This document shows positions 1-26,936 of a stretch of 64,000 nucleotides of DNA, in pieces (position 1 is the first letter of the stretch; each line of letters opens with the position of its first letter). The notes beneath the pieces were generated by a model. The model ran no database searches. It saw only the letters and a list, made by a program, of their open reading frames with translations, and was not told the DNA's origin. Source of the stretch: an uncultured Oligoflexia bacterium (GTDB taxonomy: Bacteria; Bdellovibrionota; UBA1018; CAZJVD01). A program made the translations under genes and the position numbers. The stretch is from positions 420,241 to 484,240 of the forward strand of contig CAZJVD010000001.1 of NCBI GenBank assembly GCA_964549505.1, in the 5' to 3' direction.

Positions 1-93
1 GCCGCTCGACTTTCGCGCATGCACCGGTGCAGCCGCCAGCGTGGCGCAAAAAGAAAACACTACGGTTGTTCGACGAACCCCAATACACCCCAT
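1..93 (-). CDS. 5' end of another exported protein (runs off the left edge)
   Basis: Manual translation from ATG at 93: MGCIGVRRTTVVFSFCATLAAAPVHA|RKSSG, open to the edge. GGGGAG SD upstream; signal-peptide pattern with a VHA cleavage site. Absent from the ORF track. Confidence 0.7.
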   Translation of the reverse strand, partial: MGCIGVRRTTVVFSFCATLAAAPVHARKSSG

Positions 94-2283: not shown

Positions 2284-5200
2284 TTGAAGTCGTCCTCACT
2301 GTTTGGCTCAGCGGTTGATTCAGTAGCGGGCTCAGTCTGTAGCGCATCTTGTGGCACGCCTGCTTGCGGAGCGATTTGCGTGAGTGCGGCCCCAGCCACG
2401 AATTGTTTCATGTACTCCACGAGACCCGAGTGATCCTTTGCTGGCAGCAAGATATACCGACGTGTTCCGTCTGCAGCGTCGAAGGCGTACTGTTTCAGCG
2501 GACCGGGCATCGTTCCGGTTTCGTATCGGCCGCGATACCACCATTCTAGCCGACTCGTGTTCCCCGTCGCACTCCGCATGGCTTCGCGTTCAAGCGTCGC
2601 CAATGCGGAGTTTTCGAGTTCGGACTGCCCAATAAAATAACGAGCTGCTTGGCGCTTAGTCTGTAGCGCCGGAATCAATTCTTTTGCTGCGCGATCAGCA
2701 TACGCAAAGTCTGCCGTCGAGATTTCGCCCTTAGCAAGCTTGGTGTTGAGGTCCGTGATCGCCTTAGCAATCTCTTCTGGATCGAAGGTCGGATCGCGCT
2801 TCAGCGCCTCGAAGTGGCGTTTGTGCTGTATCAAAAAACCGATGGCATCGTTGTGTGCTTTGATGACTTCTCGGCCAAGCGTGCGCTCCGCCCAGTTGAT
2901 GCGCTCGATAGCTAAGGCCGAGTCGCCCGTGTTACCTGCGGCCCGCGCTGAGTTTCGCGCGGACTCTGCCAACGAGGACAGTCGGCCTGGGTTGTGAACG
3001 ATTTCGACGAGGTCGTTACGCGTGATCCGCAGTTCGTCGAGCGCTTTTGTAATGCGCGACTGACGGCGTGCGGCCTGATAGCGCCCGACGCGCTCGAAAA
3101 CCTTCGCAAACAGCGGCGAATCCGAAAACGGATTTGGAACCGTTCCCACGACAAAGAGTCCGTCGAGAAGCACGCGCCAGTAGTAACCGGTCGCCATGGA
3201 GTCCAGAGAGTTTTCGATCTCTCGCAACGTCTCATCGGCGGCCAATCCGCCCTTGTCGACGCTACTCAAGTACAGTTCCCACGCCTCTTCTTCTTTGTTC
3301 GGCTGTGTGACCCAGCGATCGTAACTATAAAATCCGAGATTGACGACGGTTCCGAGTGCCATCGACCCAATGACAGCCCGAGGAACGACGGCATTGAAAC
3401 TCGCCATATATCCCCGCCCCATGCCACCTAACCACGTCGCTTTTCCGAAAACACCGAATAGACCGGGTAGGTAGAGCAACATCATCTTCCGAACGTATTG
3501 GTCGTGAAACTGATAGAAAAAGTACTCGAGTTTTCCGGGCATGTTGGTCGCCCACTTTTCTTCTAAGTACATGTTCTTGAACTGCGGATGTTCGCTCAGG
3601 ACCATCTCCGACCAGAGTGGATTGTTCACCAGCACCTGTCGGCGCTCTTTGGTGAGTTCGTTAAAGTCGTGAGCCTCTGCGAGTGCATCGATCTGATCTT
3701 GAATATAGTTGTCCGTTACTTCGGACAAGGTGCCTTCGACCCATTGAGCGATTTCTGGAAGCTTCGCGTCCGGAATCGTCTCACCCGGTTTCAGCGGACC
3801 CACCTTCTCCGCAAGCTTTGTGTAAAGAGGGATTTGGTCGTCCTCGTCGTCGGTTGGATTGATAGGTGCGCGCAGCGGATGGTTCTCAGCAAAATACTTG
3901 TCCATCGCAGCTTGGCGGTAGACTTCAAAGCCGCTCTTGTCGCCCGTAAAGACCGTGTTAACAAATGAACCCCACCAGCCAGAGTCCAATGACTTGACGT
4001 CAGAGAGATAAAGCGTTTTCTGACCGGGGCGCTTCTTGCTGTCCTTCGGTTCGAGCGTGAGTCCCATGCGTTCGCCGAGCGCGAGCATGTCCAAGAGATC
4101 TTCGCGAGCTTCCAGATTTGCGCGCTGAGCGACGACCGAGTCTTTTTTCTTGTACTCACTCGGGAGTTTCTGAATATCGAGAACATTTCCAAGCGCGATC
4201 TTTCGGGCTTGAGCAACATCCACACGATAACCGTTGTGAATGATCACGGAGGTCGCATTCTCAAAACGACTCACGGCCGCTTCGACAAAGGCAGCGTAAC
4301 GCATCTGGGCCGTTTCCCAAGATCCACCCTGTGCGATCAGGTCGAAGACTTTCATCACATCGTCTGAGATCCCCGGAGCTTCATCCGGTGCGAGAGGTTT
4401 ATCTCCCAACTGTACCCAACCAATGAACCACCAATGCTTGGCTCTTTCACTGAGCGGACGATCATGGCGCTCAAACCCTGTTTTGAGCTCCGGATTGTTC
4501 ATTCGAATCGAGAAAACTTCCCAAAGAACATCCACGTCGACTTCGAGATCGTCGTCACTGGTCTTTTCAATCGCGTTGGCTTGCACCGCCGCTTCGGCCA
4601 TCGAGCGCGCACGCGCCAAGCGAACGTTTTCTTTCAGTAACGTTTCCGTACGCACGCGAGCGCGATCGATCCACTTTTTCAAGTAATCAGGCGCGATGCC
4701 TTGAGCAAACTCGACGGCGTGGTTATCTAAAACCTCGCGTAGAGCTTGGGAGCCACCGGAGAAAAGGCTCTCGAGACGTTCTTCGACAGCACGATCGACT
4801 TCTTTGAACGTTTCTTCATCCAAAGGCTTATCCGTCGGAATCAGAGACTTGATCCCCGCGGCCGTGCTGAAAGCCACATCGGCTTTCGCGCGAGCCATCA
4901 ACCACGCCAGGTGTTGTGCGAGCTCGTCGTCCGAAGTGAGCTGTGTGAGCGGAACCGGCCAAGGTTGCGCCATCACGATCTCGGCTTTTTCGCTTCGGAC
5001 GCCAAGGGCTTGTCTTAAAAACTGTTCGGTGTGGTTGATCTCTTCGAAAACCCAAAGATTGTACGTCTCTGTAATCGACGCTAACTCCTGAGGAGTCTTC
5101 TCTTTGTGATAAGTAGCGCCTTGTAAACGCCGAACCGTTTCGACCACTGCGGGCGTGCTGTAGGCCATCCCGGCCGGAAGCATGTCCTCCGGAAGCCAGT

Positions 5201-6575
5201 GATCGATGAAGTAGTTACGATTGTGTAGGGCGAGATCCTTTGGAAAGAGGTCGGCGGTCTCGACGAGTGCCTGTCGGAACGCTTTTTCGCGTTCGGACTC
5301 GAGCGAAAGCGCTGCTTTCACAAGCATCGGTCGCAGTGATTCGAGACGGGCATCTAGAGTCGGTAAGTTATCGGCGGTCGGTGTCTTACCCTGATACATC
5401 AGCGACAGAGCGGCCTGCCGAAAGAGCTCGATCAGACCGTAGTAACGATAAAGTTCAAAGAGCGAAGACGAGCTCATGGTGTTTGCGATGCGTTCGATCG
5501 CGATGCCGGTCAGATGATGTTCTGAGAAACCGACCTTCAGCGTGGCGTCTGGATTGCTCGGGATACCCTTGAAGTCGCGGATCACATGCGGACCGTCGCG
5601 CGAAAGTCCTAACTCTTGGATCTCTTTGAGCCCGGTCATGGTCTCGAGCGCGCGCAACGAGATCTCGAGATCGTACTTAGCGATCCAAGCCGTCGATGCG
5701 TCCAGGCCAATAAGCGCGCGCGTTCGCGCGAGCATGTCGAGATCTTTCCAGTACTCGATCATCTTTTCGTACGTCACCACAGGAGGAGAGAAAACCCCCT
5801 CGGGTGCGTTTGGCTCCGCCTTGACGGTTCGGTCAAAAAGATAGCGATTGATAGCGACCGCTTTGTCCGCGTCCGAAAGCTTTGGGTCAGCAATGTTCGG
5901 CGGAATCGTGAGCTCAGGAGTCTGTTTGGGTTTTTCCTTGGGATACGCAATGAATCGACTGGTGAGGTCCCGGAAAGGAGCGAAAACGGTTTTTTCGAAG
6001 TTCTCGATCGTATCGACAGTCGGCGGGCAGTTTTCCGAGAACCGCGGCGAGGAGCCTGGAGCCTTTGCGCAGGTGTAGAGCGTGTTGATCTGGTCGCGCA
6101 CCGAGGCAGCGTGTTTTCTCCAGAACTCATGATGGTTCGCGTTCACACGATGAAAATACTCATACTTGGCTAGAGCGAGACGTTCTCGGCCCAGCCTCGC
6201 CTTTTGCTCTTCTGTCGCCCACTTACCGTAAGCCTCGACCTCTGCCTCTAATTGCTGGTCAGGTGTGAGATAGGGGAAGGGAAAGTCCCAGCGCTGACTA
6301 TCATCTTCAGCCGCGGCTTCTTCTTTGTAGACGAGCTCGTCCAGAGACTGCGTCGAGACATAATAGCCATCGGGATACTCATCGGGCAGCTGCTGCGTCG
6401 CCGGCGAGCTTGGTGCCGCAGCTGGCGAGACACCAGGACTGAGCGCCTTCTCCGCAGGAGTTTTTTGAGGCGTACCGTCCTGCCGGGACCGAGGGGCACC
6501 GAAAGAAGGAAGAGCCAAGAGAATAATCAGTAGCAAACCAGTGTTCAACATCCGCTTTATAACCACAAAAACCAC
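2280..6575 (-). CDS. Giant exported protein (~1430 aa; ATG at 6551 also plausible) with C-proximal membrane segments and two J-like repeats; paralog of 17648..21772
   Basis: Long ORF; N-terminal signal peptide (LLLIILLALPSFG|A); about three hydrophobic segments at ~3140-3490; motif similarity to the 1374-aa protein. Confidence 0.9.
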   Translation of the reverse strand: MVFVVIKRMLNTGLLLIILLALPSFGAPRSRQDGTPQKTPAEKALSPGVSPAAAPSSPATQQLPDEYPDGYYVSTQSLDELVYKEEAAAEDDSQRWDFPFPYLTPDQQLEAEVEAYGKWATEEQKARLGRERLALAKYEYFHRVNANHHEFWRKHAASVRDQINTLYTCAKAPGSSPRFSENCPPTVDTIENFEKTVFAPFRDLTSRFIAYPKEKPKQTPELTIPPNIADPKLSDADKAVAINRYLFDRTVKAEPNAPEGVFSPPVVTYEKMIEYWKDLDMLARTRALIGLDASTAWIAKYDLEISLRALETMTGLKEIQELGLSRDGPHVIRDFKGIPSNPDATLKVGFSEHHLTGIAIERIANTMSSSSLFELYRYYGLIELFRQAALSLMYQGKTPTADNLPTLDARLESLRPMLVKAALSLESEREKAFRQALVETADLFPKDLALHNRNYFIDHWLPEDMLPAGMAYSTPAVVETVRRLQGATYHKEKTPQELASITETYNLWVFEEINHTEQFLRQALGVRSEKAEIVMAQPWPVPLTQLTSDDELAQHLAWLMARAKADVAFSTAAGIKSLIPTDKPLDEETFKEVDRAVEERLESLFSGGSQALREVLDNHAVEFAQGIAPDYLKKWIDRARVRTETLLKENVRLARARSMAEAAVQANAIEKTSDDDLEVDVDVLWEVFSIRMNNPELKTGFERHDRPLSERAKHWWFIGWVQLGDKPLAPDEAPGISDDVMKVFDLIAQGGSWETAQMRYAAFVEAAVSRFENATSVIIHNGYRVDVAQARKIALGNVLDIQKLPSEYKKKDSVVAQRANLEAREDLLDMLALGERMGLTLEPKDSKKRPGQKTLYLSDVKSLDSGWWGSFVNTVFTGDKSGFEVYRQAAMDKYFAENHPLRAPINPTDDEDDQIPLYTKLAEKVGPLKPGETIPDAKLPEIAQWVEGTLSEVTDNYIQDQIDALAEAHDFNELTKERRQVLVNNPLWSEMVLSEHPQFKNMYLEEKWATNMPGKLEYFFYQFHDQYVRKMMLLYLPGLFGVFGKATWLGGMGRGYMASFNAVVPRAVIGSMALGTVVNLGFYSYDRWVTQPNKEEEAWELYLSSVDKGGLAADETLREIENSLDSMATGYYWRVLLDGLFVVGTVPNPFSDSPLFAKVFERVGRYQAARRQSRITKALDELRITRNDLVEIVHNPGRLSSLAESARNSARAAGNTGDSALAIERINWAERTLGREVIKAHNDAIGFLIQHKRHFEALKRDPTFDPEEIAKAITDLNTKLAKGEISTADFAYADRAAKELIPALQTKRQAARYFIGQSELENSALATLEREAMRSATGNTSRLEWWYRGRYETGTMPGPLKQYAFDAADGTRRYILLPAKDHSGLVEYMKQFVAGAALTQIAPQAGVPQDALQTEPATESTAEPNSEDDFK

Positions 6576-6667
6576 ATGAACTGGTGAGGCTTATTCAATT
6601 GTCGGAGAAGAGAATCTAAGGTGGGAAGTACGAGCCAAAACTTTATAATCAAAACTTTTTCGCTCAC

Positions 6668-6696
6668 CCGGGAACCCATTTTGATTGGGTTCCCGG
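6668..6696. other. 11-bp inverted repeat (RNA hairpin) between the 306-aa and 1431-aa genes
   Basis: CCGGGAACCCA-N7-TGGGTTCCCGG. Confidence 0.6.
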
Positions 6697-6718
6697 ACTC
6701 GCGATTTTTCTAACTAGG

Positions 6719-6744
6719 AAAAAGGTCTTTTTTTAGAAAGACCT
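6719..6744 (-). terminator. Intrinsic terminator-like hairpin after the 306-aa gene
   Basis: Minus strand AGGTCTTT-loop-AAAGACCT followed by a T-run, ~20 nt after the stop at 6766. Confidence 0.55.
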
Positions 6745-6765
6745 GTGTAGGGACCAGAACCGTTA

Positions 6766-7686
6766 TTAGGTTCCAGCTCCTACTAAAGCATCTTGAGCAA
6801 CTTCTGCTGCTGCTTGATCGCCGCCTGGAAGGTCAACAGTCAAGCAAGCTTCTGCTTCGCGGCCTTCGTTTGCTGCTGCAACCTTGTTCGGGAGCAACAA
6901 CAAGCTAGCAAGGCTTGAACGATCGAAGATCTTAGCAACATGTTGGTTCTTTAAGAGGCCTTCCAAAACGTTTTGGAAAGCTGTGTTGCCGGGATTTTCG
7001 ATCACGTCAGCGAGAGCGAAAATAAGTGTCTTTGCATTTTGAGCAGCCTCTGGCGAAAAGCCTTCGCCACGAAGGCACTGCTCGAAAATTTTCAGGTCAA
7101 CGATCTGAATACCAAGACGCTTTTCAGCGGAAACGATAGCGTTTACAGCCGCATCGGTATTGTATGTACCCAAACCCGCGTCGCCCACTGCTGCAGTGAT
7201 AGCGTTACGAATCTGTGTTTCGCGATCTTGGCCAGCAACCGTGCTCGCTGCGATACCTGCTGCAGCGATCGATGCCGTACGGCTATAGCCTTCGACATGT
7301 TCGCTAGCAATGGCGCTCACAGCAGCTTCGAGCTTTCCAGCATCTTTCAAGCTGTATGCATCGACGCTTTTGACGGCCTTAACGAGTTTTTGAACTTTTG
7401 CTTGGAGAGCCGGATTACCTTTTACGGCTTTCAAGACGGCTGCGTTTCTCTTTGCGAGAGATTGCGAATAAGCAGCTGAACCGACTGCGCCCGCAACTGC
7501 TGGCAAGTTGCCAACGATCGAAACGAGAGCCGAGGAGTAAGCTGACGTACCGGCAACTGCTTCAGGAACAGCACCAAGCTCTTGCGCAAGCGTCAATGCT
7601 TGGACGCCTTGCGGAGCAGCTGAAGCAACATTGAAGTTTGCGACTGCCGCGATAACACCTAGAACAACGAGTGTATTGAATTTCAT
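6766..7686 (-). CDS. Exported Ala-rich helical protein (306 aa); paralog of 21782..22561
   Basis: Classic signal peptide MKFNTLVVLGVIAAVANFNVASA|A; shared motif KRxG..FE(Q/T)CL; many GCT/GCA/GTT codons. Confidence 0.9.
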   Translation of the reverse strand: MKFNTLVVLGVIAAVANFNVASAAPQGVQALTLAQELGAVPEAVAGTSAYSSALVSIVGNLPAVAGAVGSAAYSQSLAKRNAAVLKAVKGNPALQAKVQKLVKAVKSVDAYSLKDAGKLEAAVSAIASEHVEGYSRTASIAAAGIAASTVAGQDRETQIRNAITAAVGDAGLGTYNTDAAVNAIVSAEKRLGIQIVDLKIFEQCLRGEGFSPEAAQNAKTLIFALADVIENPGNTAFQNVLEGLLKNQHVAKIFDRSSLASLLLLPNKVAAANEGREAEACLTVDLPGGDQAAAEVAQDALVGAGT

Positions 7687-7931
7687 TTTGAATTACCCTT
7701 TCTTCCTAGTTAATACTTTCGAAGCGCCCCCACAATCGGACCGCGTCTCGCGCGGGGAACTCAGCGAAATTTCTGTTTCATATTTCATGAGCTCACCCCG
7801 GTCAAGTTATACAGAAAAAACCAGAAAGTGCCCAAGAAACTTTGCTGTATGCGGTGGCAGAATTTAGTCGAATCGCCGCTCAGTGTCAAATGATTTTTGC
7901 GGGAAATCATGAAATCACACATCCGCTACCC

Positions 7932-10900
7932 CTACCAATTGAACCAGAAGTCGCGCTGGTTCGTTGTGGCGTTCGTGTCGCCAACACGAAGGATCTTAAA
8001 CGAGCCGTGAAAGAAATCGATTGTAAAGGATTCTGAACCTTCAAACGCTTCATTGCCCTTCGTCGATGCCATATCTTCTATACGGTCGCGCACCCACACA
8101 TCAAGTTCTTCGAAAAAGCGATTCAGTTGTCCAGGGTGGCGTTGAGACTGAGCGGTGATCTCACGGATCGCGTCCTGTCCGAACAGGAGTTCGAAAGAAT
8201 ACTCGGTGTCCAGATGGTCCTTGAGGTGCTTTGCGGCGTTCTCAGTCACTTTCTTACTCCATGCATCGGCGGCCTCCTGCACCTTGGCACGAGCAGCACC
8301 AGCGCCCTCGTGGGTCGTAATGAGGAGCTGACCCTCATCGGTGGCAACAACCACGATCTTATCCCCTTTCCTAATCACACCACGTGCGAACAGGTCACTG
8401 ATCTGATTGTTCAGTTCTGCGCGTATAATATGTGCTGCGTTCCGGGCTCCCTCACCTTCGGCACTCATGCGCCGGGCGAGATTGTTGATGGTTCCGTCCG
8501 GCATTTCTATTTCGATACCAAGTGCCTTGACGAGATTGTGCGTCGACTTAAGGCGCTGACCAATGATCTTACGAAACGCATCCACATCCAGATCCTTAAA
8601 CGCCAGGATGCGATCGGGACCTGTGCGGTTTAGGTTTGCGTTCAGAAAGATCGTTCGTTCAAGCTCGAGCATTTCGAGCAGCTTGACTTGTGCCGCGCTG
8701 AACGTGAACAGTCCCTGCGTGATGCCTTCGCGGAAGGTTTTTAAGAGGTACTCGCGCTCCGCCGGGGATGGGTTGGCATAGGTACGTCCCCTTTCCGACT
8801 GTCCCGAGAGGCGATCTGAAATATCGCGACCGATACGGCGAGCCCGTTCTTCAAACTCTCTCGCCCAAGGTCCTGCACCTGGTTTTGCGCGTATTCCCGA
8901 GAGGACTCTTGCGAAATCAAGTTCGCTCGTGAGCAGCGTTTCTTTGAACTTATCAAAATAGACCTCGGGTTGGTACTTAACCTGTTGAGCTTGGTTTGTT
9001 GTGTAGATCACCATCACGTTCGAGATGTTGATCTTACGACCAGCGCCGTCTTCGATAACGTTTTCGTTACCCATTCTTTTGAAAAGTTCCATCGCCTCAG
9101 GGGGCCCGCCGTTGTAACGATCCGGCATGACCTCATCATACAAAATGATAGCGAACGGATATCGGTTGACGTGATCGGTGAGCTTTCCACCCTCGTGCTG
9201 AGCCGGGTTACCCGCCAACGAAAAGGTTGTTGGAAACTGTGACGCCTGCAGCGCAAGTAAGTTTTCGGGGTTTCCGTACAGAATCTCGTTGATCTTCTCT
9301 GCGAGGTAAGTTTTTCCTAAACCGGAATTCCCTAAAAACACGAACGATACGCGAAGGCCCTTTGTGCCAGCATCGCGACCCGCACTATGAACGGAGTGAT
9401 AAGCGGTCATGATTTCGCGTGCGACAGCTTTAACGACCTCCGGTTGTCCAAAGACGACTTCTGAAATCGCTTTCTCGAGGTTTTCGAGCCTGCCGTCGTC
9501 ATCAGCAGAAATCCGCTCGATCGGAATGTTCTTTCGAAGCGCAATGGCCTTGATGAGGTCGGGAACACCGATCTCAGCCGACGGACGTGCGACTTTATTG
9601 CCTCCGGCCTCCGCCTTTTCCACTGCTGTGATGGTTTCTTGAACACGCACGATCTGTTCGTGAATCTTTTCAAGGGGTCGATGGATCAAGGGGTTTTTCG
9701 CGGCGGCTACATATTCGGTCTCAAGAGCGAGTAATGTGCGTCGAAGAGCCACAGTGTCGCTCTGGGCGTCGAGTTCAGCGACAAGCGCTTCTTCTTCACG
9801 CTTGAGTCGCTCCACTGTAGCTTGTAGCTCTGTCAGACTTTCGAAAAGTATCCTGCTTCGTGGGCCCACATCGCGATCGGTAGACTGCTTGATCGATGCG
9901 ACAGCCGTTCTTGCGTCGGCCAAATGGGATCGAACCTCCTCAAGTTTACGCAACGGAGTACTGTTCTCGTAGAGTTTAAGGGCGATTGCATAATCCAAGA
10001 GTTCAATAGCGGCGTTCGGGAACGCACCACCAAGGTATTTCGATCCTAAGTTGTAGGCGGCATCGACTACTTTTTGAACAGATTCGGCGTCGTTTCCAAA
10101 GGAGATCCGATCATTGTAATGCGCACTCAAGCGGCCCATGTGAAACTCTAAAATCTGTTTGGTCTCGGCCTCCGTGGTCCAGCCGAGATAAATAGGGGCC
10201 ACCTTGTCCCGCAAGAAATCACTCTTCGCGGTGACCTTGTTGTAGTTTTCTATTGTGATCGTTGCGACGATTCGTAGATCCTTACTCTTGAAAATCCCTT
10301 CCATGAGCTGAATAAGATCGCTTGGGTTGTTCGACGAGGCACCTTTTCCTTGGAGGGACTCGAACTCGCGGATCACGAGTACGAGTTTCTTGTCTTGTTT
10401 GGCGGCTTCTTCAGCGGCCGCTTTAAGGTCTTCTTCGAGAGATTTAACGCGCTTTTCGATTTGCCCGACGATCCCGGCTCCGCCCGCGAGCAACTCGACA
10501 TCAAGCTCAATCACTTCAAGGGATGGGTCTTTTGCGAGCATGCGTGCAAGCGTGTTGCGTCCTGATCCACGTGGTCCCACGATGGCGACGTTGTTCATTT
10601 CGCTCGAAGCGAGCGCTGTTCGGATTCGATCCATTTCGGCTTTTCGTCCGATACCATCGGACATCGCGGTCGTGATCCTGCGTGTGAACTTTGTAAGAGC
10701 TTCACCCGGGGAAAACTTTTCGTTAACGCTGTCTCCAGACTTGGTTTCTGTGCCTGCGCGGCTTGTAGCAGTGCCATCCGTCTTGCCCTGTGCGGTTCGA
10801 CCGCTCTCCCCCGGCTTTGACGTCGCTCCGACAATCGGAACATCATCTAACTCGACAATTCGATTCTTAATCTGACTAACGGATAAACCATTGGTCTCGA

Positions 10901-11771
10901 ACACGGTGGCCGCTGATGCGCTTCCCGGTACAGAGCTTTCGCCCAATTTTGCGCCCATCAGGAGATGGCGACCCTCAACCACGCCCGGCTGACTCGACCT
11001 CTTGCTATCAGCAATCTGCTTTAAGATCGACCGAGCATTCAAAAGCATAGCGGTCAAATCGAGTGATGGAAGAGTCGGCGTGCGTAGTCTTGCGTCGACA
11101 TGCGCCTGAGAGTCCGTTTCAGGTAGCCATCGTGCGCTCGAAATATCTGTCTTGAGCCAGCCCGGAGAATCAATGACAGCAAGGTCTTCGGCGCTGAGGC
11201 GAGCATCCGGTTCGATTTTGGAGTCTCGTATCGTCGAGACACGCTCACGCATCTTAAGAAGGGCCGCTGTTTCAACCGTGTAATTGCCGGACGCATCTTG
11301 GAAGGCGTCGAGAGTCTTAACCGCTCTCGGCGTTATCATTTTGATGAGCCAAATTTTACGAAGTCCGCGTTTTACTTTTCCGACGGCCGTTGACTCGTCT
11401 CGTGCCTTTAGCGCGCGACGCACGAGTTCCAGGTCAATGAGAGCCTGAATCATGTGACGACGTTCGACACGCCCCTTTCGACCGAGTTGACCGTCGCGAG
11501 CGGCGAGCCTCATGGCGTTGACATAAACGATACGTGCATCCGTTCCGAGGAACTGTTCGAGTTCTGTAACGAAAGCGATGGCGTCGTCCGCTGCCGCAAC
11601 ACACTTGTTTTTGGAGACAGGTTGAAGTTCGAGATCAGCGTGTGCGCGCGGTCCGAAACACGCCACAAACAACCCGATCACCAGAGCTGTCATTAAACCG
11701 CGGTAGAAACCACGGGGGTTCTGGACTCTAAAGCCAAGTCGGTTCATCACAGTCATCATTGCAGCAGCCAT
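7932..11771 (-). CDS. ClpB/Hsp100-like AAA+ protein with an N-terminal signal peptide, degenerate NBD1 and intact NBD2
   Basis: Two Clp-N-like repeats (VERRHMIQAL, VEGRHLLMG); NBD1 GPRGSGRNT/LVIREF; M-domain coiled coil; NBD2 FLGNSGLGKT, IILYDE, YTTN, LNR, EGARN. Likely start ATG 11771 (TAATG overlap with the upstream stop); signal ..LVIGLFVACFGPRAHA|D. Confidence 0.9.
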   Translation of the reverse strand: MAAAMMTVMNRLGFRVQNPRGFYRGLMTALVIGLFVACFGPRAHADLELQPVSKNKCVAAADDAIAFVTELEQFLGTDARIVYVNAMRLAARDGQLGRKGRVERRHMIQALIDLELVRRALKARDESTAVGKVKRGLRKIWLIKMITPRAVKTLDAFQDASGNYTVETAALLKMRERVSTIRDSKIEPDARLSAEDLAVIDSPGWLKTDISSARWLPETDSQAHVDARLRTPTLPSLDLTAMLLNARSILKQIADSKRSSQPGVVEGRHLLMGAKLGESSVPGSASAATVFETNGLSVSQIKNRIVELDDVPIVGATSKPGESGRTAQGKTDGTATSRAGTETKSGDSVNEKFSPGEALTKFTRRITTAMSDGIGRKAEMDRIRTALASSEMNNVAIVGPRGSGRNTLARMLAKDPSLEVIELDVELLAGGAGIVGQIEKRVKSLEEDLKAAAEEAAKQDKKLVLVIREFESLQGKGASSNNPSDLIQLMEGIFKSKDLRIVATITIENYNKVTAKSDFLRDKVAPIYLGWTTEAETKQILEFHMGRLSAHYNDRISFGNDAESVQKVVDAAYNLGSKYLGGAFPNAAIELLDYAIALKLYENSTPLRKLEEVRSHLADARTAVASIKQSTDRDVGPRSRILFESLTELQATVERLKREEEALVAELDAQSDTVALRRTLLALETEYVAAAKNPLIHRPLEKIHEQIVRVQETITAVEKAEAGGNKVARPSAEIGVPDLIKAIALRKNIPIERISADDDGRLENLEKAISEVVFGQPEVVKAVAREIMTAYHSVHSAGRDAGTKGLRVSFVFLGNSGLGKTYLAEKINEILYGNPENLLALQASQFPTTFSLAGNPAQHEGGKLTDHVNRYPFAIILYDEVMPDRYNGGPPEAMELFKRMGNENVIEDGAGRKINISNVMVIYTTNQAQQVKYQPEVYFDKFKETLLTSELDFARVLSGIRAKPGAGPWAREFEERARRIGRDISDRLSGQSERGRTYANPSPAEREYLLKTFREGITQGLFTFSAAQVKLLEMLELERTIFLNANLNRTGPDRILAFKDLDVDAFRKIIGQRLKSTHNLVKALGIEIEMPDGTINNLARRMSAEGEGARNAAHIIRAELNNQISDLFARGVIRKGDKIVVVATDEGQLLITTHEGAGAARAKVQEAADAWSKKVTENAAKHLKDHLDTEYSFELLFGQDAIREITAQSQRHPGQLNRFFEELDVWVRDRIEDMASTKGNEAFEGSESFTIDFFHGSFKILRVGDTNATTNQRDFWFNW

Positions 11772-13681
11772 TATCGGGGCCTCCGGGCAAACTGAACACC
11801 CTCGAGGACAGCGAGGGAGCAAGAGTCATCGTAAAAAAAGGTTCGAACAAAAAAGTAATCGTAGGCGTCGGTTGGGTCCGGTGTGCCGGACGCGATCGCA
11901 TCGAGGGCGCGCACGCGCTTTTCCACGGAGCCTGTGAGCTTGATCACTTGAAAGCCTTCTTTTTCAGCGATCGGAGTCACTCGATCCACGGTGTTGGGAT
12001 CAAAGCTTGTAAACCCATCGAGGCCTGGTTCGCCCTTCTGACATTCGGCCGCATCGATGTTTCCCACGAGATTGAGCATGCCTGCGAGGTGGGGCACAAG
12101 ATCTGGACGATCGACGGGGGTGACACTCAGAACCGTGCGGACAGAGTCCGGCGTCAGGCGAGAGCTGCTTTCAGAAGATGTCGAGAGAGTTTCGTCTTCT
12201 TGTCGACCGACGACGCGGTGGCGGAGTTCGCAACGTCGTACATCGACCGTTTGAAACGGGCTTTCATAGGAGAGCGAGGCGATTTCACAAGTGACGGTAT
12301 AGGGTTTTGGAGAGGCCAGCGCTTCGTGCGGAGTCGTCTTTGTGTCGATAGCAAGCGGTGCAAAACTGACGACGAGCACGTCGGTCGTATCGCCCCAGCC
12401 CCATAGTCCGCGCTCTGTTTTTTTCGAAACATTCATATTCGTGGGTGCGAAACCAAGAAGGTCTAAGAGAGCTCGCAGACGTAGGTCGTCGGAGATCGTT
12501 CCAGCACTCGCAGTGCCTGTGGGTTTCCGGATGGGCGGTTTGTTCAAGACCTTGGCCCACTCGTTCAGAAAGAGGTTTCGTCGAGCGTCGTCAGCGCCGA
12601 CGGAAAAAAATCCAAAATCGATAGGGTCTTGCTGGCAATCCGCTCGTTTATACACGCGCGCGACCAGATGGACATGATCTTGTCCCTCGTTCGGCAGGGA
12701 TCCGAACGCTTCTTGCGCCGCAGGCCCGAGTACGGCCATCTCATACGAGTATCGCTTCAGGGCGTAGCGCGCAGACGACTCTGGTTTAAATGTCCCGGCC
12801 ACGCGATGGAGCGCAAGGGGGTGTGAAGGGTCGATCGGCATGCATGTGAAATGTGTGCGGGGATCTTGAAGCGGATTGTAGAGCGTCGATGCCAGCGCTG
12901 TTTCAAAAAACAGAAATCCCTGAAAACGATCAGGTGGAAGTTTTAGCGCTTCAAAACGTTTGGCCAGTGTTTCAAAGTCACCCAGTCGCGCGACCGTTTC
13001 TTCTGCGAGTATGGTTTCGAGGCGCTCGGCTTGCTTTTTCCGAGCCGCTTCGGCGACCGCTTGCTGAGCGAGAAGGGTTTCTCGGATCGAAATCTCTTTA
13101 GCGTGTTCCTCGAGTGTCCCAAACAAGATCGGAAACGTTTTCCAAATTTGGTTTTCTGGTTTGTCGAGCGTCGTGCATGTTTTGATTGAGACGGTTAGTT
13201 CTCCGGTTGCGGGTTCAAGCGGGACTTCTTCGGGGTCGGTTGGGGGTGGCGGCGCCGGAATCGTCGTTACGGAGACCGCGCATTCGAAACTGCTGATGCG
13301 AGCGCCGTTCAGACCGATGTCCACGAAACGGGTCGTGGCAGTCGCTTTCTTCGGGTCGCTTGCGTTGACTGAAAGCTTGACCTTGAGGTCGACCGGCGAA
13401 AATCCTTGTTCTTTGATGGCCGTAGTAATGAGGGGAGTGACGGACGCCTCGTCAATAATTGCGGGCGGGGGTGAGGGCGTGGGCGAAGGCGCGGGCGCAG
13501 GGAAAACTTCTTGTGGGGCTGGCGGCGTCGCTATCGGCGGTTCCTGACTGCTTACGGCGCCATGCGCTAATGACGCATTAGACCATGGCCCAGGTAATCC
13601 CCAGCCAAGGCTGCAGAAAAGAGCTGCTGCTAATGAAAATAAACGAGTCATTACAATCACTTCGACAACCACTTCGACCAT
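11771..13681 (-). CDS. Exported Pro-rich, Cys-paired hypothetical protein (636 aa; ATG 13651 alternative) translationally coupled to the Clp-like gene
   Basis: Signal peptide MTRLFSLAAALFCSLGWG..; Pro-rich linkers; apparent internal A-B-A'-B' duplication. Confidence 0.85.
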   Translation of the reverse strand: MVEVVVEVIVMTRLFSLAAALFCSLGWGLPGPWSNASLAHGAVSSQEPPIATPPAPQEVFPAPAPSPTPSPPPAIIDEASVTPLITTAIKEQGFSPVDLKVKLSVNASDPKKATATTRFVDIGLNGARISSFECAVSVTTIPAPPPPTDPEEVPLEPATGELTVSIKTCTTLDKPENQIWKTFPILFGTLEEHAKEISIRETLLAQQAVAEAARKKQAERLETILAEETVARLGDFETLAKRFEALKLPPDRFQGFLFFETALASTLYNPLQDPRTHFTCMPIDPSHPLALHRVAGTFKPESSARYALKRYSYEMAVLGPAAQEAFGSLPNEGQDHVHLVARVYKRADCQQDPIDFGFFSVGADDARRNLFLNEWAKVLNKPPIRKPTGTASAGTISDDLRLRALLDLLGFAPTNMNVSKKTERGLWGWGDTTDVLVVSFAPLAIDTKTTPHEALASPKPYTVTCEIASLSYESPFQTVDVRRCELRHRVVGRQEDETLSTSSESSSRLTPDSVRTVLSVTPVDRPDLVPHLAGMLNLVGNIDAAECQKGEPGLDGFTSFDPNTVDRVTPIAEKEGFQVIKLTGSVEKRVRALDAIASGTPDPTDAYDYFFVRTFFYDDSCSLAVLEGVQFARRPR

Positions 13682-13806
13682 TACTTCTTAGGGCCAGTAA
13701 TCCCGGCCTGTATATATCACCGACGCACCACAACAGAGAAGCTTGGAGTTTTTAACAAACCCGAGTCATTTTGTAAAGTATAATGATGGTTCACTAATGT
13801 TAACAA

Positions 13807-16302
13807 TTACAGGACGTCCACGAGGAGGGCTTGCTGCTGCTCGGGCCAAAACGCCACAGGGACCTCGTGTTGGATATCGTAGGTGCTGAGAAGCGACTGA
13901 AGCTTCTTGGTCATGTCGGTAGCTTTGGTGGCGATCTCGCTTGGAGCACGCCCGCGGGCAAAGACAAACTCGCGCGATAAAATTCGAAACGACATGGCCA
14001 CTGAAAATAAGACGTCAGACGCTTTAGCGCCCGCGCGATCCGGATCGGGTTGTTCTAGGCCCACGAGATCGCGGGTGCCTCGATACATTTCGTAGAAAAA
14101 ATCACCGACGCCATCGACCGTTCGTTCGATCGGACGGCAGAGCTGCTGCGCGTAGCGTTCTTCGATCGTCCGCTTACGATGCTCAAAGAGCGCGGCAACA
14201 GTTTCCGGAAAAGCGGTGCCAGACGTGAGATCGGAAGCCCGAGCGGCGACGTCCACATCCTCAAGGATTTTCTTAGCGACGGTTCTTTGAGAAAGAGGCC
14301 AGAGCCCAACCTGCTCATGGAAGAGCGCCGGTGTGAGTTCTAATACCGAGTCAGCGTTCGCTCGGGCCTGCATCGCAGCCAAAAGATTTTCATATGCAAA
14401 GTAAAGGCGCGCGTCTTGGCCCGTCTGATCCGCCGCGAGCTCGTGGATTTTCTGGCGATTCTGAGCGATCAGCTGCTTGACCTTGTTTTCAAAGCGCACG
14501 TCCTTTGCAACCACGCTCAATCCGCGGCGAAGGTTTTCTTCTTCGAACTGATCTTCGAGTGTGTACCGAGCGCCTTCGAACTCAGAGCGAAGCCTGCTGT
14601 ACTCTTCGTGACTGATGCGCTCGGGACGATCCGACGAGCCCGTTCCCTCGAGGACCTCAGGTCCCCAAAAGTTTCCGGTCCGCACCGAGCGGTAGTAAGC
14701 CGCGCGGACGCCTTGGACTTGGTTCCTGTAGCGATCGTCATGCGGAACCTCCATGAAGAACTTGAGTGGCATCTCGGCCGTAGCGTCCGGTCGCGCAGTG
14801 AAAAACCCGTATGGAATCTCTTCCTGACTGAGAAGAGCGTAGTTGTTCGGGGCCGCGAGTAGTCGCTGCATATCGTTCCAGCTTGGAAACGAACTCATCG
14901 CAAAGCGAGATTCTCGATTAAGATAAGGAGCCGCAATCAACTGATAGGTCGTTACCGTCGCGACGTCTTGCTCGCGCGTCTCTTGGTCGAGCGCAACAAA
15001 AAGATCGCGATAGGAGCGACTGTAGCTGGGTGACGAGCGCACCGTCTCCCACGTGAGGGCCGCCATCGCGTCGTGCAGCTCTCCAGAGAGAGCGAGGAGT
15101 TCAAAGTGAGAGTCCTTATGTTTCAAGATATAAACATTGCGAGCTGCTTCGAGCATCGTGTCGGACAGGTCGTAGTGGTCGAGCGTGATGTCGGAGACAG
15201 AAAGCGCGCGCAACTTCTGGTGAGCGTCGCATAGGCGATCGACCTCCGTGCCGATCTGTTCGATTTCCAGTTCATGCCTGAAGGAATACTCGACAAAATT
15301 TAAAATGAGCGTAATCACGACCGTGACGATCGCAACAGGTCCGACTTTCAAAGCAAGACCCGCCGTTGTGTTCAGGGTTTCGGCAAAACGAGCAACTCGC
15401 ACAATGCGTTCGAGACTCGCAATGGCTAAAGAGGTACCCGGCAGAACCGCCGAAAGCGTGAGAGACTGTACCTGTTCTTCGGCCAGTTCTCTCAAGGCGA
15501 CGAGTTCTTGCTGTTCGGGAGACAGCTCGACGCGTGACGTGTCCCGAACACCGCCAAATCCGAAAACAAGAGCAGGCGGCGGTATCACACCGGCTGAGAC
15601 GTAGTCTTCTCGATCGATGTCGCTCATGACTGCTGGTATCGCCGCGCCCCCAGTTGCCACGCTACGAAAGACCGCCGCTGTTCCCAAAATCCGTGCCGCA
15701 TAATCCAGTTGGGTCACAGCTGGGAGGAGCTTGATAAACTTTCCATATGCGAGCCAGTACATGAGGCTTGCGACGCCAGCAGCAGGAACCGAATACTTGA
15801 GATTCGACTGAAACTTCCGACTCTGAATCTTGATTCGCAGTGCCCGAACCAGGTTTCGATCTTCCCAAGAAGCCTGTAGGTTTCGTGCGAGCTCGATCGT
15901 CGCCAACGGCTGACGGGTCTTGTACTGAGCGGCATACGCCAAGAGATGTTCGTAACTCGAACCATCCACACCGTCGAAAACGAGCTCAGCGAACTCCGCA
16001 CGACAGTTCAAGGTACGCAGCCCCATCTCCGATGCGGACGAACGATGGGCGTGTGATGAAAAGTAGAGATCTACGAAACGTCGTCCGAGCGCCAAAGGGT
16101 CACTGTAGTTGGCTCGTTCCTCCGGGTCGAGGCAGGTGGCGCGGTCGCGGAGATCCGACCAGGAGTTGACTTGCGGGGCGTTCGCTTGCTCGTTTTCGAC
16201 GAAGCCAGCTGCGGCAAGCGGTGCATAGGCACGAGCACTTGTAGGTGCGGCCGTCTGAAAAAGGAGTGCGACGCTGAGGAAGGAGGCTAAGAACGATTTC
16301 AT
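13807..16302 (-). CDS. Exported helical protein (831 aa) with internal hydrophobic segments
   Basis: Signal MKSFLASFLSVALLFQTAAPTSARA|; hydrophobic PAAGVASLMYWLAY and VGPVAIVTVVITLILNFV; ATGA overlap with the upstream gene. Confidence 0.9.
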   Translation of the reverse strand: MKSFLASFLSVALLFQTAAPTSARAYAPLAAAGFVENEQANAPQVNSWSDLRDRATCLDPEERANYSDPLALGRRFVDLYFSSHAHRSSASEMGLRTLNCRAEFAELVFDGVDGSSYEHLLAYAAQYKTRQPLATIELARNLQASWEDRNLVRALRIKIQSRKFQSNLKYSVPAAGVASLMYWLAYGKFIKLLPAVTQLDYAARILGTAAVFRSVATGGAAIPAVMSDIDREDYVSAGVIPPPALVFGFGGVRDTSRVELSPEQQELVALRELAEEQVQSLTLSAVLPGTSLAIASLERIVRVARFAETLNTTAGLALKVGPVAIVTVVITLILNFVEYSFRHELEIEQIGTEVDRLCDAHQKLRALSVSDITLDHYDLSDTMLEAARNVYILKHKDSHFELLALSGELHDAMAALTWETVRSSPSYSRSYRDLFVALDQETREQDVATVTTYQLIAAPYLNRESRFAMSSFPSWNDMQRLLAAPNNYALLSQEEIPYGFFTARPDATAEMPLKFFMEVPHDDRYRNQVQGVRAAYYRSVRTGNFWGPEVLEGTGSSDRPERISHEEYSRLRSEFEGARYTLEDQFEEENLRRGLSVVAKDVRFENKVKQLIAQNRQKIHELAADQTGQDARLYFAYENLLAAMQARANADSVLELTPALFHEQVGLWPLSQRTVAKKILEDVDVAARASDLTSGTAFPETVAALFEHRKRTIEERYAQQLCRPIERTVDGVGDFFYEMYRGTRDLVGLEQPDPDRAGAKASDVLFSVAMSFRILSREFVFARGRAPSEIATKATDMTKKLQSLLSTYDIQHEVPVAFWPEQQQALLVDVL

Positions 16303-17651
16303 TTTTCGCCCTCCGTTTTCAATCCCGCCAAATGCAGACGAGCTTCGTGAAGTGATTCGTTAACGAGGTTGTTACCGATGATGGCGTCCATTTCAGGCAT
16401 CTTGAATTCGGCGCGTTCGGACTCAGCCCAGAGCATCTCATTGTCTTCGAGTTTGAATTTCTGCTCGTCTTTGTAGAGCGGGTTGTCCATGCCTTCTTTC
16501 CAGAACGAGTCGCATTCGAGCAACACATCAGACTGCGTTTGAAGAATGTCGATTCGCCGGGCAATCAGTGCTTTCTGATCGTCGGACGGCTTTTCGATCG
16601 ACTGTACTTCGTTCAGCACTTCGCGTGCATCCCACATCAAAAGCTGAAGTGCCAGCGCTTCGTAGTTGCGAAAAACTTCGTCGGGAGAGTCTTTTTCGTC
16701 TTGGCGGACCCAGAGATGAAAAGCTGTGTAACCGAGGGCCCCCGCCGTGCCAGCGATGAGAACGCGCGAAGGATCGCCACCGATCAGGCGGCTGAAGTCC
16801 GCGGCGCTCCGGGTTTGAATAAAGCGCAACCCCAACACGCGTCCGGCACGCGCGCGTGCAGCGAGCGAACCGACAAACTTTTTTGTTCCGACCGTAACCG
16901 TGTCGATCGGATGCAGGATCGCTTTTCCTGTGTTAACGGCCGTGTTTTCGATGCTGGATAACTTCGCAAGTCCTGCGGCCTTTGCATCTCGCGCGGCTTC
17001 GCGTGTGACCTGTTTGACGGCAGCAACCACTCCCTGGCGATCCACAGCAAGGTTGGCGGCGCGAACACGTTCTAAGACCTTGGGGACAGCATTACGAAGC
17101 ATCTTAAAGCCATTCCAACCAACCATCCTAGCGCCATTATAAGCAACCGTCGCCCACACAAGCGCGATCCATGCCCCACCGAAGCCGTGGATGGCGGAAC
17201 GTTCCCAGTAGTCCTGCGAACGTTCGTCGCGTTCTTCTTGGGTGTGTTTTGAGAGGGCCTTACGAAGGTCAGTGATGAGAGGCCGCTGTGAGGGATTCGC
17301 GACAAACATCGTCCCAAGCGTGCGCAGAACGGTGTTATGCACGTCGGGCCCCTGACTTATTAGGTCGCTCACGATGTTGTTGCCCATCTGTTCGCTAGCG
17401 TCTTGGGTGAGCGTGAGCTTCGGCGCACCGTCGAGCGTTTGAGGAATACCCAAGAGATCGAGCGTAAGAATGTCCTGTTCGTCGGAGAGCTCAAGACCGC
17501 CCGTCTGTGCTGTTTCCATGTAGGTCATGAGAGATTCCGACCAATCTTGCAGCGAGAACGGCGACTCATCTTCGTCGGCACGCGCCGGCACACTCACGGC
17601 CTGAGTGAACAGGCTGACCAGAAGCATCGGGACAATCATCGGGAGATTCAT
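16299..17651 (-). CDS. Exported helical protein (450 aa) with two hydrophobic segments; paralog of 259..2283
   Basis: Signal ..AVSVPARA|D; GFGGAWIALVWATVAY and VLIAGTAGALGYTAF; ATGA overlaps at both ends. Confidence 0.88.
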   Translation of the reverse strand: MNLPMIVPMLLVSLFTQAVSVPARADEDESPFSLQDWSESLMTYMETAQTGGLELSDEQDILTLDLLGIPQTLDGAPKLTLTQDASEQMGNNIVSDLISQGPDVHNTVLRTLGTMFVANPSQRPLITDLRKALSKHTQEERDERSQDYWERSAIHGFGGAWIALVWATVAYNGARMVGWNGFKMLRNAVPKVLERVRAANLAVDRQGVVAAVKQVTREAARDAKAAGLAKLSSIENTAVNTGKAILHPIDTVTVGTKKFVGSLAARARAGRVLGLRFIQTRSAADFSRLIGGDPSRVLIAGTAGALGYTAFHLWVRQDEKDSPDEVFRNYEALALQLLMWDAREVLNEVQSIEKPSDDQKALIARRIDILQTQSDVLLECDSFWKEGMDNPLYKDEQKFKLEDNEMLWAESERAEFKMPEMDAIIGNNLVNESLHEARLHLAGLKTEGEK

Positions 17652-21772: not shown

Positions 21773-21781
21773 TCCTAAAAT

Positions 21782-22561: not shown

Positions 22562-22766
22562 AGAAATTTCGCTCCAAATTTCTAAAGAGAACTTAGTCTT
22601 TAATTAATCTTTCAGGGTCTTTCCGCAAGACGTTCCGCAAAGCTGAAACCCGAAAAACGGAGCTCAATTTATCTAAGTGGACCAAAAAAATCAAGTTTAA
22701 ACTTGTGATGTGTAAAAAACCCCAAGAAAACTCTCAAGAAAACCACGGGAAAGCTAATGATCCCTA

Positions 22767-26557: not shown

Positions 26558-26936
26558 GCGTACGCACAGCGGGGAAGCCACTTCCCCATCGCTTCCCTTC
26601 GGATTTGAAAACCGCCTTCATAAGCGAGCTGATTTCCTAAGATTTTTTGAGAACAGCCAAGCGCGTAAGCGTGGTGATGTTCTCTATTTTGTGACGACGA
26701 ACGATCGCGACTGTTTTCGTCTCGGCGTCACGTTCAAGCTTCGTATGAGTTCTGTTGTGCGCAATCGTCTGCGCCGCGCGATTCGGGAAACGTTCCGATT
26801 GCTCGGACCCGAGCTCCGCGGTCGCGACTTTAACGTTGTGGTACGACGGGAAAGCTGCTTAGATCCGTTGGGTCAAAAACGTTTCCGATCGGACTTAAGA
26901 GAGCTTCTTCTGCTGGAGAGAAAAGGGAATTCGTAA
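26541..26936 (+). CDS. rnpA: Ribonuclease P protein component
   Basis: [24 protein letters not shown] (RNR motif); position after rpmH; exact start uncertain. Confidence 0.9.

Follow-up and report, generated by a model that had tools for sequence, protein, structure and literature searches.

The gene examined here lies in a 64,000-nucleotide stretch of contig CAZJVD010000001.1 (positions 420,241 to 484,240 of the forward strand; assembly GCA_964549505.1, an uncultured Oligoflexia bacterium), which we refer to as the window and in whose coordinates all positions are given unless another locus is named. It encodes a Clp/Hsp100-like protein of 1279 amino acids (aa) and occupies, with its stop codon, positions 7932–11771 of the minus strand, as a single open frame that is recognised both by Pfam and by a phmmer search of the PDB. 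The coordinates proposed in an earlier note on this DNA were right, and the strand is minus: the plus-strand reading of 7932–11771 is riddled with stops, and on the minus strand one uninterrupted frame spans 7932–11822. In the sequence TAATG, the ATG at 11771 and the TAA stop codon of the upstream gene g636 share a base, and a Shine-Dalgarno (SD) sequence, GGAGG, is located 8 nt 5′ of this ATG (11780–11784, minus strand). We scanned the in-frame ATG, GTG and TTG codons from codon −16 to codon 117 as start candidates, and of these 12 only the ATG at 11771 has an SD-like site. The in-frame starts in codons 1–36 would all keep at least part of the N-terminal hydrophobic segment described below, those at codons 27–36 falling within it, while the first in-frame start past the segment, codon 87, lacks an SD. 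The concern that the true start might lie downstream of the hydrophobic segment is therefore not borne out.

The G+C content of the gene is that of its flanks, in a host genome of 54% G+C. The gene sits between dnaA and dnaN-recF-gyrB on a 559,867-base contig carrying dnaA, dnaN, recF, gyrB and ATP synthase genes, and the metagenome-assembled genome to which it belongs is 93.7% complete in 30 contigs, with a contamination estimate of 0.03%. A 136-kb Logan contig from run X1 spans positions 2600–22599 (20 kb) with 0 differences, a match that is not independent support since X1 may be the source sample of this DNA. In a second sample of the same study (X2) fragments match with one difference, which is located outside the gene, and run X3 contains only two pieces of about 40 nt with less than 90% likeness. 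The sole run with the complete sequence is a groundwater metagenome. Taken together, these results indicate that the gene is real and intact.

The affiliation of the protein with the Clp/Hsp100 class is clear. By phmmer, 52 distinct PDB sequences matched at E ≤ 0.001, all of Clp/Hsp100 type, the best being ClpC (1.6e-35), Hsp104 and ClpB, over a range of 1.6e-35 to 1e-30; the predicted structure likewise points to this class, with ClpC (E 8.5e-37), Hsp104 and ClpB as the top PDB matches in Foldseek. Pfam recognised, above cut-off and in this order within one chain, an AAA module (residues 396–508, 45.9 bits), an AAA_2 module (808–931, 45.4 bits) and ClpB_D2-small (1061–1141, 33.8 bits), the arrangement of two-ring class I Clp/Hsp100 proteins, with AAA_lid_9 at 20.0 bits, below its cut-off of 22.8. 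Within the class the protein is isolated. When 5.8 billion clusters were searched by word index, the protein retrieved its own record, followed by ordinary Clp proteins of 22–32% identity; in a full HMMER comparison with 1.84 billion representatives it scored 2629 bits against itself, and the next protein reached 159 bits. No orthologue was found among the 1.84 billion representative proteins or in 400 genomes of the phylum, in which no match reached 1e-42; in 40 genomes of the same order the best matches were ordinary ClpB genes, with E-values of at least 1.4e-39, over residues ~317–929. The NCBIfam scores were far below the respective cut-offs for ClpV (TIGR03345, 172 bits versus 884.95), ClpB (TIGR03346, 164.4 versus 1232.1) and ClpA (TIGR02639, 159.7 versus 993.15), whereas all 56 of the other Clp-like proteins scanned reached at least 571 bits on the ClpB model.

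The earlier note had called for an alignment and a tree. In the resulting tree of 33 rows, from which P0052 and P0056 were left out because of their three AAA_2 modules, the Clp-like protein is placed outside the ClpV clade and in no well-supported clade, and its terminal branch, of 6.73 substitutions per site, has about 17-fold the median length (0.4). Since the genome also encodes a normal ClpB (an 865-aa frame) and a normal ClpA (an 839-aa frame), the Clp-like protein is an extra paralogue. A recent duplication of the genome's own ClpB was considered and rejected, the two proteins being only 25% identical and showing no affinity in the tree. We conclude that the protein is a lineage-restricted, extremely diverged two-ring Clp/Hsp100 paralogue, and neither a ClpB nor a ClpV nor a ClpA.

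A separate observation concerns the 198 other Clp-like proteins that we retrieved, five of which have a strongly hydrophobic N-terminus. In P0052 and P0056 a signal peptide is followed by three tandem AAA_2 modules; P0096, P0133 and P0164 were noted together with these two. P0072, P0076 and P0085 carry long N-terminal extensions with a hydrophobic stretch before the ClpB-like core.

Next, to assess the state of the catalytic motifs, we aligned the protein to the ClpB and ClpA of the same genome and to named sequences of ClpB, ClpC and ClpV (all features of the gene lie on the minus strand). The first nucleotide-binding domain (NBD1, residues 376–600, positions 9972–10646), modelled with a predicted local distance difference test (pLDDT) score mostly of 86–96, is catalytically degenerate. 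Its Walker A remnant reads GPRGSGRNT (10551–10577), with the Lys replaced by R405 and the Thr by N406, and its Walker B remnant reads LVIREF (10362–10379), with the Asp replaced by R468. In addition, both Arg fingers are lost, a change absent from the earlier note: at the Arg-finger position, LRDKV (10200–10214), ERRF has become RDKV (R522D, R523K). The remnant of pore loop 1, GGAGIVG (10464–10484), contains no aromatic residue, I434 taking the position of the Tyr.

The second ring presents a different picture. The large subdomain of NBD2 (736–935, positions 8967–9566, delimited by Pfam and the alignment) has intact catalytic motifs, namely Walker A GNSGLGKT (9309–9332), Walker B ILYDEV (9129–9146) and sensor 1 YTTN (8994–9005), and is completed by a D2-small subdomain (1047–1171, positions 8259–8633) with the Arg finger LNR (R1049) and sensor 2 GAR (1108–1110). 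Thus, five catalytic residues have been lost in NBD1 (K405R, T406N, D468R, R522D and R523K) and none of the seven in NBD2 (K820, T821, D879, E880, N926, R1049 and R1110). Of the positions that are at least 90% conserved among 93 Clp proteins, the Clp-like protein keeps 29/64 in NBD1, 26/45 in NBD2 and 8/10 in D2-small. Pore loop 2 is an exception to the integrity of this ring: its remnant, LAGNPAQHEGG (9186–9218), has a 7-residue gap and no GYVG, with Q858 and H859 occupying the G and Y positions.

The two rings are joined by an M-domain-like coiled coil (~601–735, positions 9567–9971) of about 135 residues, which aligns with the M-domains of ClpB and ClpV and is absent from ClpA, and which AlphaFold2 (AF2) modelled as long helices (605–722; pLDDT of 58–90 in 10-residue blocks). 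After sensor 1 there is an insertion of about 98 aa (937–1034, positions 8670–8963) opposite a gap in all five references, predicted with low confidence to form five helices (pLDDT 51–68); it begins near the alignment position of an extra post-sensor-1 loop in the genome's ClpA and may serve as a docking surface. The 108-residue C-terminal extension (1172–1279, positions 7935–8258) ends in FWFNW, has no detectable family by alignment or hidden Markov model (HMM) and was modelled as helices with three short strands (pLDDT 39–78). The AF2 model of residues 80–1279, built on a 94-row alignment, has a mean pLDDT of 73.5; NBD1, the M-domain, NBD2 and D2-small are confidently predicted, with values of 83–96 for NBD2 and D2-small.

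The region after the predicted signal peptide (46–375, positions 10647–11636) is an expanded N-terminal region. Folded alone, the N-domain has a mean pLDDT of 46; this model was built from alignment A3, alignment A2 having been dropped as visibly misaligned. Pfam Clp_N gave no match at E ≤ 0.1, and a custom profile built from 132 Clp N-termini scored the second repeat (245–320) at 10 bits and the first at −1.5 bits; a disordered linker spans residues ~311–348. The earlier note had described two Clp-N repeats, of which the second gives a weak match, and a second D2-small-like segment, for which there is no support: the custom D2-small HMM (66–69 bits) matches in a single copy, at 1047–1171. Its other structural statements agree with our analysis, including the degenerate Walker A and Walker B of NBD1, the non-aromatic pore loop 1, the retained M-domain, the intact GLGKT, YDE, TTN, LNR and GAR motifs of NBD2, the deleted GYVG loop, an insertion of some 90 aa after sensor 1 and the FWFNW terminus, and overall eight of its ten sub-claims hold.

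The n-region of the protein has four Arg residues and is followed by a hydrophobic segment (residues 21–43) and the sequence A43-H-A45|D46. In a hydropathy scan with 19-residue windows, residues 21–43 were the sole segment in the protein with a Kyte-Doolittle value of at least 1.6. We therefore predict a Sec-type signal peptide comprising residues 1–45 (positions 11637–11771): the N-terminus appears to combine a positive n-region, a hydrophobic core (for which we used a criterion length of 10–20 residues) and small residues at −3 and −1, with no downstream stop-transfer sequence. Since the four Arg precede the segment and one Arg, one His, Asp and Glu follow it, the positive-inside rule predicts an N-in/C-out orientation. 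The cleavable signal peptide described in the earlier note, with its basic n-region and AHA|D site, is thus well matched by the sequence. Its further claim, that the protein is exported, draws support from the start codon with its SD, the positive-inside n-region, the AXA site, the lack of a second hydrophobic segment and the signal-like N-termini of the neighbouring genes; at the sequence level, these features point to export by the Sec route that would leave most of the protein outside. The predicted mature protein would contain one Cys, Cys57 (11601–11603), as its 12th residue. A single Cys is also present in the predicted mature form of g830, a PrkA-like AAA+ protein encoded nearby, as the 9th residue, and the two may represent a shared tether or disulfide site, or a chance coincidence.

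The nearest relatives of the host's DnaA (50–57% identity) are labelled Bacteriovoracaceae, Bdellovibrionales or Oligoflexia, and on the basis of these labels the organism belongs to Bdellovibrionota. Also encoded in the genome are four secretins and an HMG-CoA reductase, which count in favour of the reading proposed below. The ATP/ADP translocase family PF03219 found no match in the genome; it was equally unmatched in every control genome, so this blank says nothing.

The Clp-like gene is part of a block of same-strand genes of about 30 kb (window positions 259–24811 plus G000:C1:414861-420240) that has dnaA at one end and dnaN-recF-gyrB at the other. As read by us, 12 proteins of the block have signal-like N-termini; a crude signal rule flagged 10 of 12 open reading frames (ORFs) in the block, compared to 742 of 2312 (32%) genome-wide. 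Immediately upstream, and translationally coupled to the Clp-like gene, is g636 (11771–13681, minus strand; 636 aa), which has a signal-like N-terminus, a Pro-rich linker and no family match. Four further upstream genes (13807–22561, minus strand; 831, 450, 1374 and 259 aa) encode proteins with signal-like N-termini, internal hydrophobic segments and no family match, and three downstream genes (259–7686, minus strand; 306, 1431 and 674 aa), separated from the Clp-like gene by a 245-nt gap, encode proteins with signal-like N-termini and likewise no family match. Internal hydrophobic segments, some of them paired, are found in several neighbours: 4 of the 8 other ORFs of the island pass the Kyte-Doolittle cut-off, and the rest were recognised by eye.

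Nine ORFs of the block that lie within the window are not AAA+ genes (g358, g259, g1374, g450, g831, g636, g306, g1431 and g674), and for these Pfam, NCBIfam, PADLOC and PHROGs returned only chance-level rows (E 0.009–0.07). The 1374-aa protein was matched in none of the 40 same-order genomes, and the 1431-aa protein (2280–6575, minus strand) retrieved nothing from the word-indexed search, its own record included, while the Clp-like protein did find itself there. When the neighbours of 1374 and 636 aa were looked up in a protein atlas, all scores were at noise level, and the Atlas model of g636 has a pLDDT of 0.40. A phage or defence island was considered and rejected: the only PADLOC matches were to the AAA+ modules of the Clp-like protein itself (DolB at 2.1e-8, PDC-M37B, PDC-S01, TRIP13 and mad8), there were no PHROGs matches, and the neighbours scored at chance level. 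At related dnaA loci, dnaN is located at most ~630 nt downstream of dnaA in 3 of 12 cases (L011, L019 and L021), L011 having a DnaA among the closest (55% identity) and a DnaN that is 66% identical; dnaN was not found at the other nine, some of which are on short contigs and some arranged otherwise.

Several smaller observations were made in this region. The product of g358 (358 aa), at the edge of the block (22767–23843, minus strand), combines an HEVGH motif and eight Cys with a signal-like N-terminus; it has no Pfam match and one 39%-identical paralogue on contig C6, and may be a secreted metalloprotease. The 306-aa gene is preceded by a promoter-like TTGACA-17-TAAATT and closely followed by a stem-loop that has a T-run (7861–7889 and 6723–6744, minus strand); these hints suggest that the gene may be a transcription unit of its own, in a promoter and terminator scan whose counts were not above those of shuffled sequences (5 versus 7.8 and 30 versus 23.4). 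Outside the block, adjoining mnmE, one 561-aa frame (26936–28621, plus strand) encodes a YidC with an N-terminal YidD domain.

The block contains a second AAA+ system. The gene g830, which encodes a diverged PrkA-type AAA+ protein of 830 aa with a signal-like N-terminus, has its first 31 codons in the window (1–93, minus strand) and continues beyond it (G000:C1:417841-420333); it is followed by g1003, a 1003-aa fusion of SpoVR and DUF444/vWA that also has a signal-like N-terminus, and then by dnaN, recF and gyrB (locus of g830 and g1003, G000:C1:414861-420333; L090:1862-7334). The genome's canonical prkA-yeaH-spoVR trio, on contig C5, is without signal-like N-termini. Unlike the Clp-like protein, g830 belongs to a family, with members in 37 of 400 other genomes of the phylum. 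A hydrophobic N-terminus is present, by index, in all 10 newly fetched full-length loci (an eleventh, among L107–L117, is cut by the end of its contig); the remaining three of the 13 sequences show one when read by eye. In all 13 aligned members an invariant Cys, in several of them the only one, is found a few residues past the hydrophobic segment, and Walker A is likewise kept in 13 of 13, with Walker B reading DE in 11 and EE in two.

In three genomes (G001, G006 and G024; L097:5810-17161, L099:6798-18525 and L100:4800-17045) the signal-bearing PrkA-like protein is encoded in a three-gene cassette with a signal-bearing giant of 1845–1996 aa, which contains GxxGxGKT, and a SpoVR-DUF444 fusion, also signal-bearing. 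A profile of the three giants found nothing significant in the block, the best match being the P-loop of the Clp-like protein (E 0.17). The g830 family resembles the Clp-like protein in its location in the same block, a hydrophobic N-terminus with an AXA-like site, an early mature Cys and a kept P-loop, and differs in belonging to the PrkA/MoxR-like AAA+ clade and in being found in 37/400 phylum genomes, where the Clp-like protein is a singleton; it is the more tractable lead. In PMC5430801, the canonical bd0228-bd0231 kinase-SpoVR operon is listed among attack-phase core genes, and a term search of PMC11656739 was negative. The literature searched, supplements aside, contained no description of an exported bacterial Hsp100 or of a signal-bearing PrkA.

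Genomes of the same order also encode another group of AAA+ proteins, of 1080–1468 aa, that combine AAA_2 modules (with Walker A, Walker B and mostly a GY[VLM]G pore loop) with an HExxH motif (L102:5652-8894, L104:4091-7570, L105:2582-6988 and L103:50-3388). Pfam Peptidase_M41 matches three of the four (L104, L105 and L103), L102 having the HExxH motif only; a hydrophobic N-terminus was seen by eye in L102 and L104 and is suspected in L105.

How might such a protein work? We tentatively favour, at somewhat below an even chance, an exported, non-threading switch that would be driven by NBD2 and would act with co-exported partners at a site where ATP is available, plausibly the prey. NBD1, devoid of its Walker A Lys and Thr, its Walker B Asp and both Arg fingers, would form a structural pseudo-ATPase ring, while NBD2, which keeps all residues for ATP binding and hydrolysis, is predicted to be an active ATPase, the whole serving as an ATP-driven conformational switch or remodeller outside the cytoplasm. 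Its partners would be the co-encoded exported proteins of the block, including the PrkA-like AAA+ and the SpoVR-vWA fusion, and for a member of Bdellovibrionota the site of action could be a prey cell or a bdelloplast. Because neither ring has a pore-loop aromatic, ClpB-like polypeptide threading is not expected; the earlier note's view that the protein is not a disaggregase or threader is well supported by this and by the loss of the NBD1 catalytic residues. An ATPase site maintained by selection requires ATP, which makes a compartment with ATP the most plausible place of action, and the kept NBD2 site together with the phylum-wide P-loops of the g830 family argues that such proteins still use nucleotide. 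DnaK, the usual partner of the M-domain, would be absent outside the cytoplasm. The suggestion of an ATP-containing foreign compartment receives indirect support, from the Bdellovibrionota relatives of DnaA and from a second signal-bearing AAA+ system with Walker A kept in 13 of 13. A further suggestion of the earlier note, a role in poisoning ClpB as a subunit, would be improbable for an exported protein, nor are mixed rings suggested by an identity of only 25% with the ClpB of the same genome.

A number of points weigh against the switch proposed here. No RNA run listed carries the gene sequence, and neither a homologue nor a population variant was found from which purifying selection on the gene could be gauged. 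The signal peptide was called by eye and with a hydropathy scan. That seven residues are kept in NBD2 is suggestive rather than proof, and over all conserved positions NBD2 is only moderately ahead of NBD1. A low Cys count is not unusual for the family, since the host's ClpB has a single Cys and its ClpA has three. Runs of 7–8 flagged ORFs occur elsewhere in the genome, which means that the clustering of signal-like N-termini is not unique, and since the non-AAA+ neighbours are without homologues, the 'system' is defined by adjacency alone. The predatory life of this organism is inferred from the labels of its relatives. Finally, Clp hexamers normally need nucleotide for assembly and the periplasm is generally regarded as ATP-free, so that with the periplasm as its end-point the ATPase would stand idle.

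The same export evidence would fit a periplasmic or envelope scaffold that remains in the periplasm of the producer and no longer uses ATP; its Clp fold would offer the membrane proteins encoded alongside it an oligomeric platform or a gate, its intact NBD2 motifs being a leftover or binding nucleotide structurally. After signal cleavage, the internal hydrophobic segments of the neighbours would hold these proteins in the inner membrane, their large domains facing the periplasm. Neither pore loop is left, and the dead NBD1 shows that the lineage tolerates inactive ATPase sites. However, all seven NBD2 catalytic residues have survived a branch of 6.73 substitutions per site along which five NBD1 residues were replaced, and the 13 of 13 Walker A motifs in the g830 family argue that exported-looking ATPases still use nucleotide; we regard such a scaffold as unlikely, if well worth considering. 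A comparably low probability is given to a membrane-tethered AAA+ protein facing the cytoplasm, held by an uncleaved N-out/C-in anchor or otherwise retained at the inner face and working in the manner of FtsH. There ATP would be on hand without special pleading, and parallels can be named: the relatives in the order with a hydrophobic N-terminus, AAA_2 (some with GYVG) and an HExxH M41-like peptidase recall membrane AAA proteases, P0072, P0076 and P0085 have, as judged by eye, an internal hydrophobic stretch as their second one, before the ATPase part, and P0096 has later hydrophobic segments by index in addition to its N-terminal one. In the Clp-like protein itself, however, the four Arg before the segment predict the opposite orientation, the core leads into an AXA site, no further hydrophobic segment is available to turn the chain around, and the same N-terminal pattern is found in every other protein of the block.

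The remaining alternatives are much less probable. A duplicated Clp gene drifting rapidly towards loss in one lineage, a decaying or functionless orphan, would account for a singleton among 1.84 billion representatives with a branch some 17 times the median, a degenerate NBD1 and degenerate pore loops, and the impossibility of a selection test is compatible with it. We nevertheless regard such an orphan as very unlikely: its 1279 codons remain open in a 54% G+C genome, with an SD and stop-start coupling to the upstream gene, in a same-strand block with a 245-nt gap downstream; NBD2 and D2-small are also well kept (8/10 conserved D2-small positions, pLDDT 83–96), and the core is predicted to fold confidently. 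We consider highly improbable a PTEX-like export motor, in which the co-encoded hydrophobic-hairpin proteins would form a pore and cargo would be unfolded and pushed through it, either into a membrane of the prey or to its far side. HSP101 is likewise a ClpB-type protein with a signal peptide (6e10 and 6e11 match at E ~1e-19), and the neighbours do have paired hydrophobic segments, but with no pore-loop aromatic in either ring, a pore loop 2 shortened by 7 residues and a dead NBD1, threading is not expected on the established Hsp100 mechanism. Hardly credible, lastly, is an assembly or binning artefact, whether a chimera or another organism's frame: the source is a metagenome-assembled genome, but the long contig that carries the gene between dnaA and dnaN-recF-gyrB, the perfect match to the X1 contig, the single difference in fragments of the second sample and the contamination of 0.03% all speak against it.

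Bacterial Clp/Hsp100 proteins are treated as strictly cytoplasmic, and the space past the inner membrane as being without ATP-driven chaperones. Together with the signal-bearing AAA+ system beside it, the Clp-like protein challenges the view that machines of this kind are confined to the cell interior, and suggests either an unrecognised class of exported ATPases using another cell's energy or a reuse of AAA+ folds without ATP. A broader version of this idea, possible though doubtful at present, is that Bdellovibrionota export whole ATP-dependent machines copied from the cytoplasmic toolkit (the Hsp100-derived switch on the one hand and the PrkA-like AAA+ with vWA/SpoVR on the other), which would run on ATP in the invaded prey and might each be tethered through a single N-terminal Cys; the Clp-like protein would then be the first bacterial Hsp100 acting past the cytoplasmic membrane. 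The Clp-like protein itself, a singleton, comes from groundwater and from an organism that is uncultured; the conserved g830 family makes the question testable in any cultured carrier.

With ClpB and Hsp104, which are among its best sequence and fold matches, the Clp-like protein shares its domain order, in which an N-terminal region precedes NBD1 and the NBD1 lid, and an M-domain-length coiled coil leads to NBD2 and D2-small; it differs in its signal peptide, the loss of the NBD1 Walker A, Walker B and Arg fingers, the lack of pore-loop Tyr residues, the 98-aa insertion and the 108-aa C-terminal extension. Of the features by which we recognise ClpB, it has the M-domain and lacks a TIGR03346 score above cut-off, Walker motifs in both NBDs and the aromatic pore loops (KYRG and GYVG). 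ClpV/TssH gave the highest NCBIfam score and has a similar M-domain length and a pore loop 1 that is also non-aromatic (AGAGVKG in P0038, AGASVKG in P0022), but the score is far below the cut-off and the tree does not join the two; ClpV is cytoplasmic and keeps both ATPase sites. Compared to ClpA/ClpC, the stretch after TTN (QAQQVKYQPE...) is by eye without an IG[FL]-type tripeptide, the motif of the ClpP-docking loop, and continues into the 98-aa insertion. Plasmodium HSP101, the PTEX motor, is similar in being a ClpB-type two-ring AAA+ protein routed out of the producer's cytoplasm by a signal peptide (E ~1e-19); it is a eukaryotic unfoldase with working pore loops and two active rings, whereas here the pore loops and NBD1 are degenerate and no partner homology is detectable, so that the protein does not classify as PTEX-type. 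Torsins, which are AAA+ proteins of the lumen of the endoplasmic reticulum, share with it a signal peptide, membership of the Clp NBD2-like clade and the absence of a pore-loop aromatic, and Pfam Torsin (PF06309) matches residues 761–833 weakly (19.9 bits, below the cut-off of 27). Unlike Torsins, which have one ring and are without an Arg finger of their own, the Clp-like protein has two rings and keeps R1049, and is thus not a Torsin.

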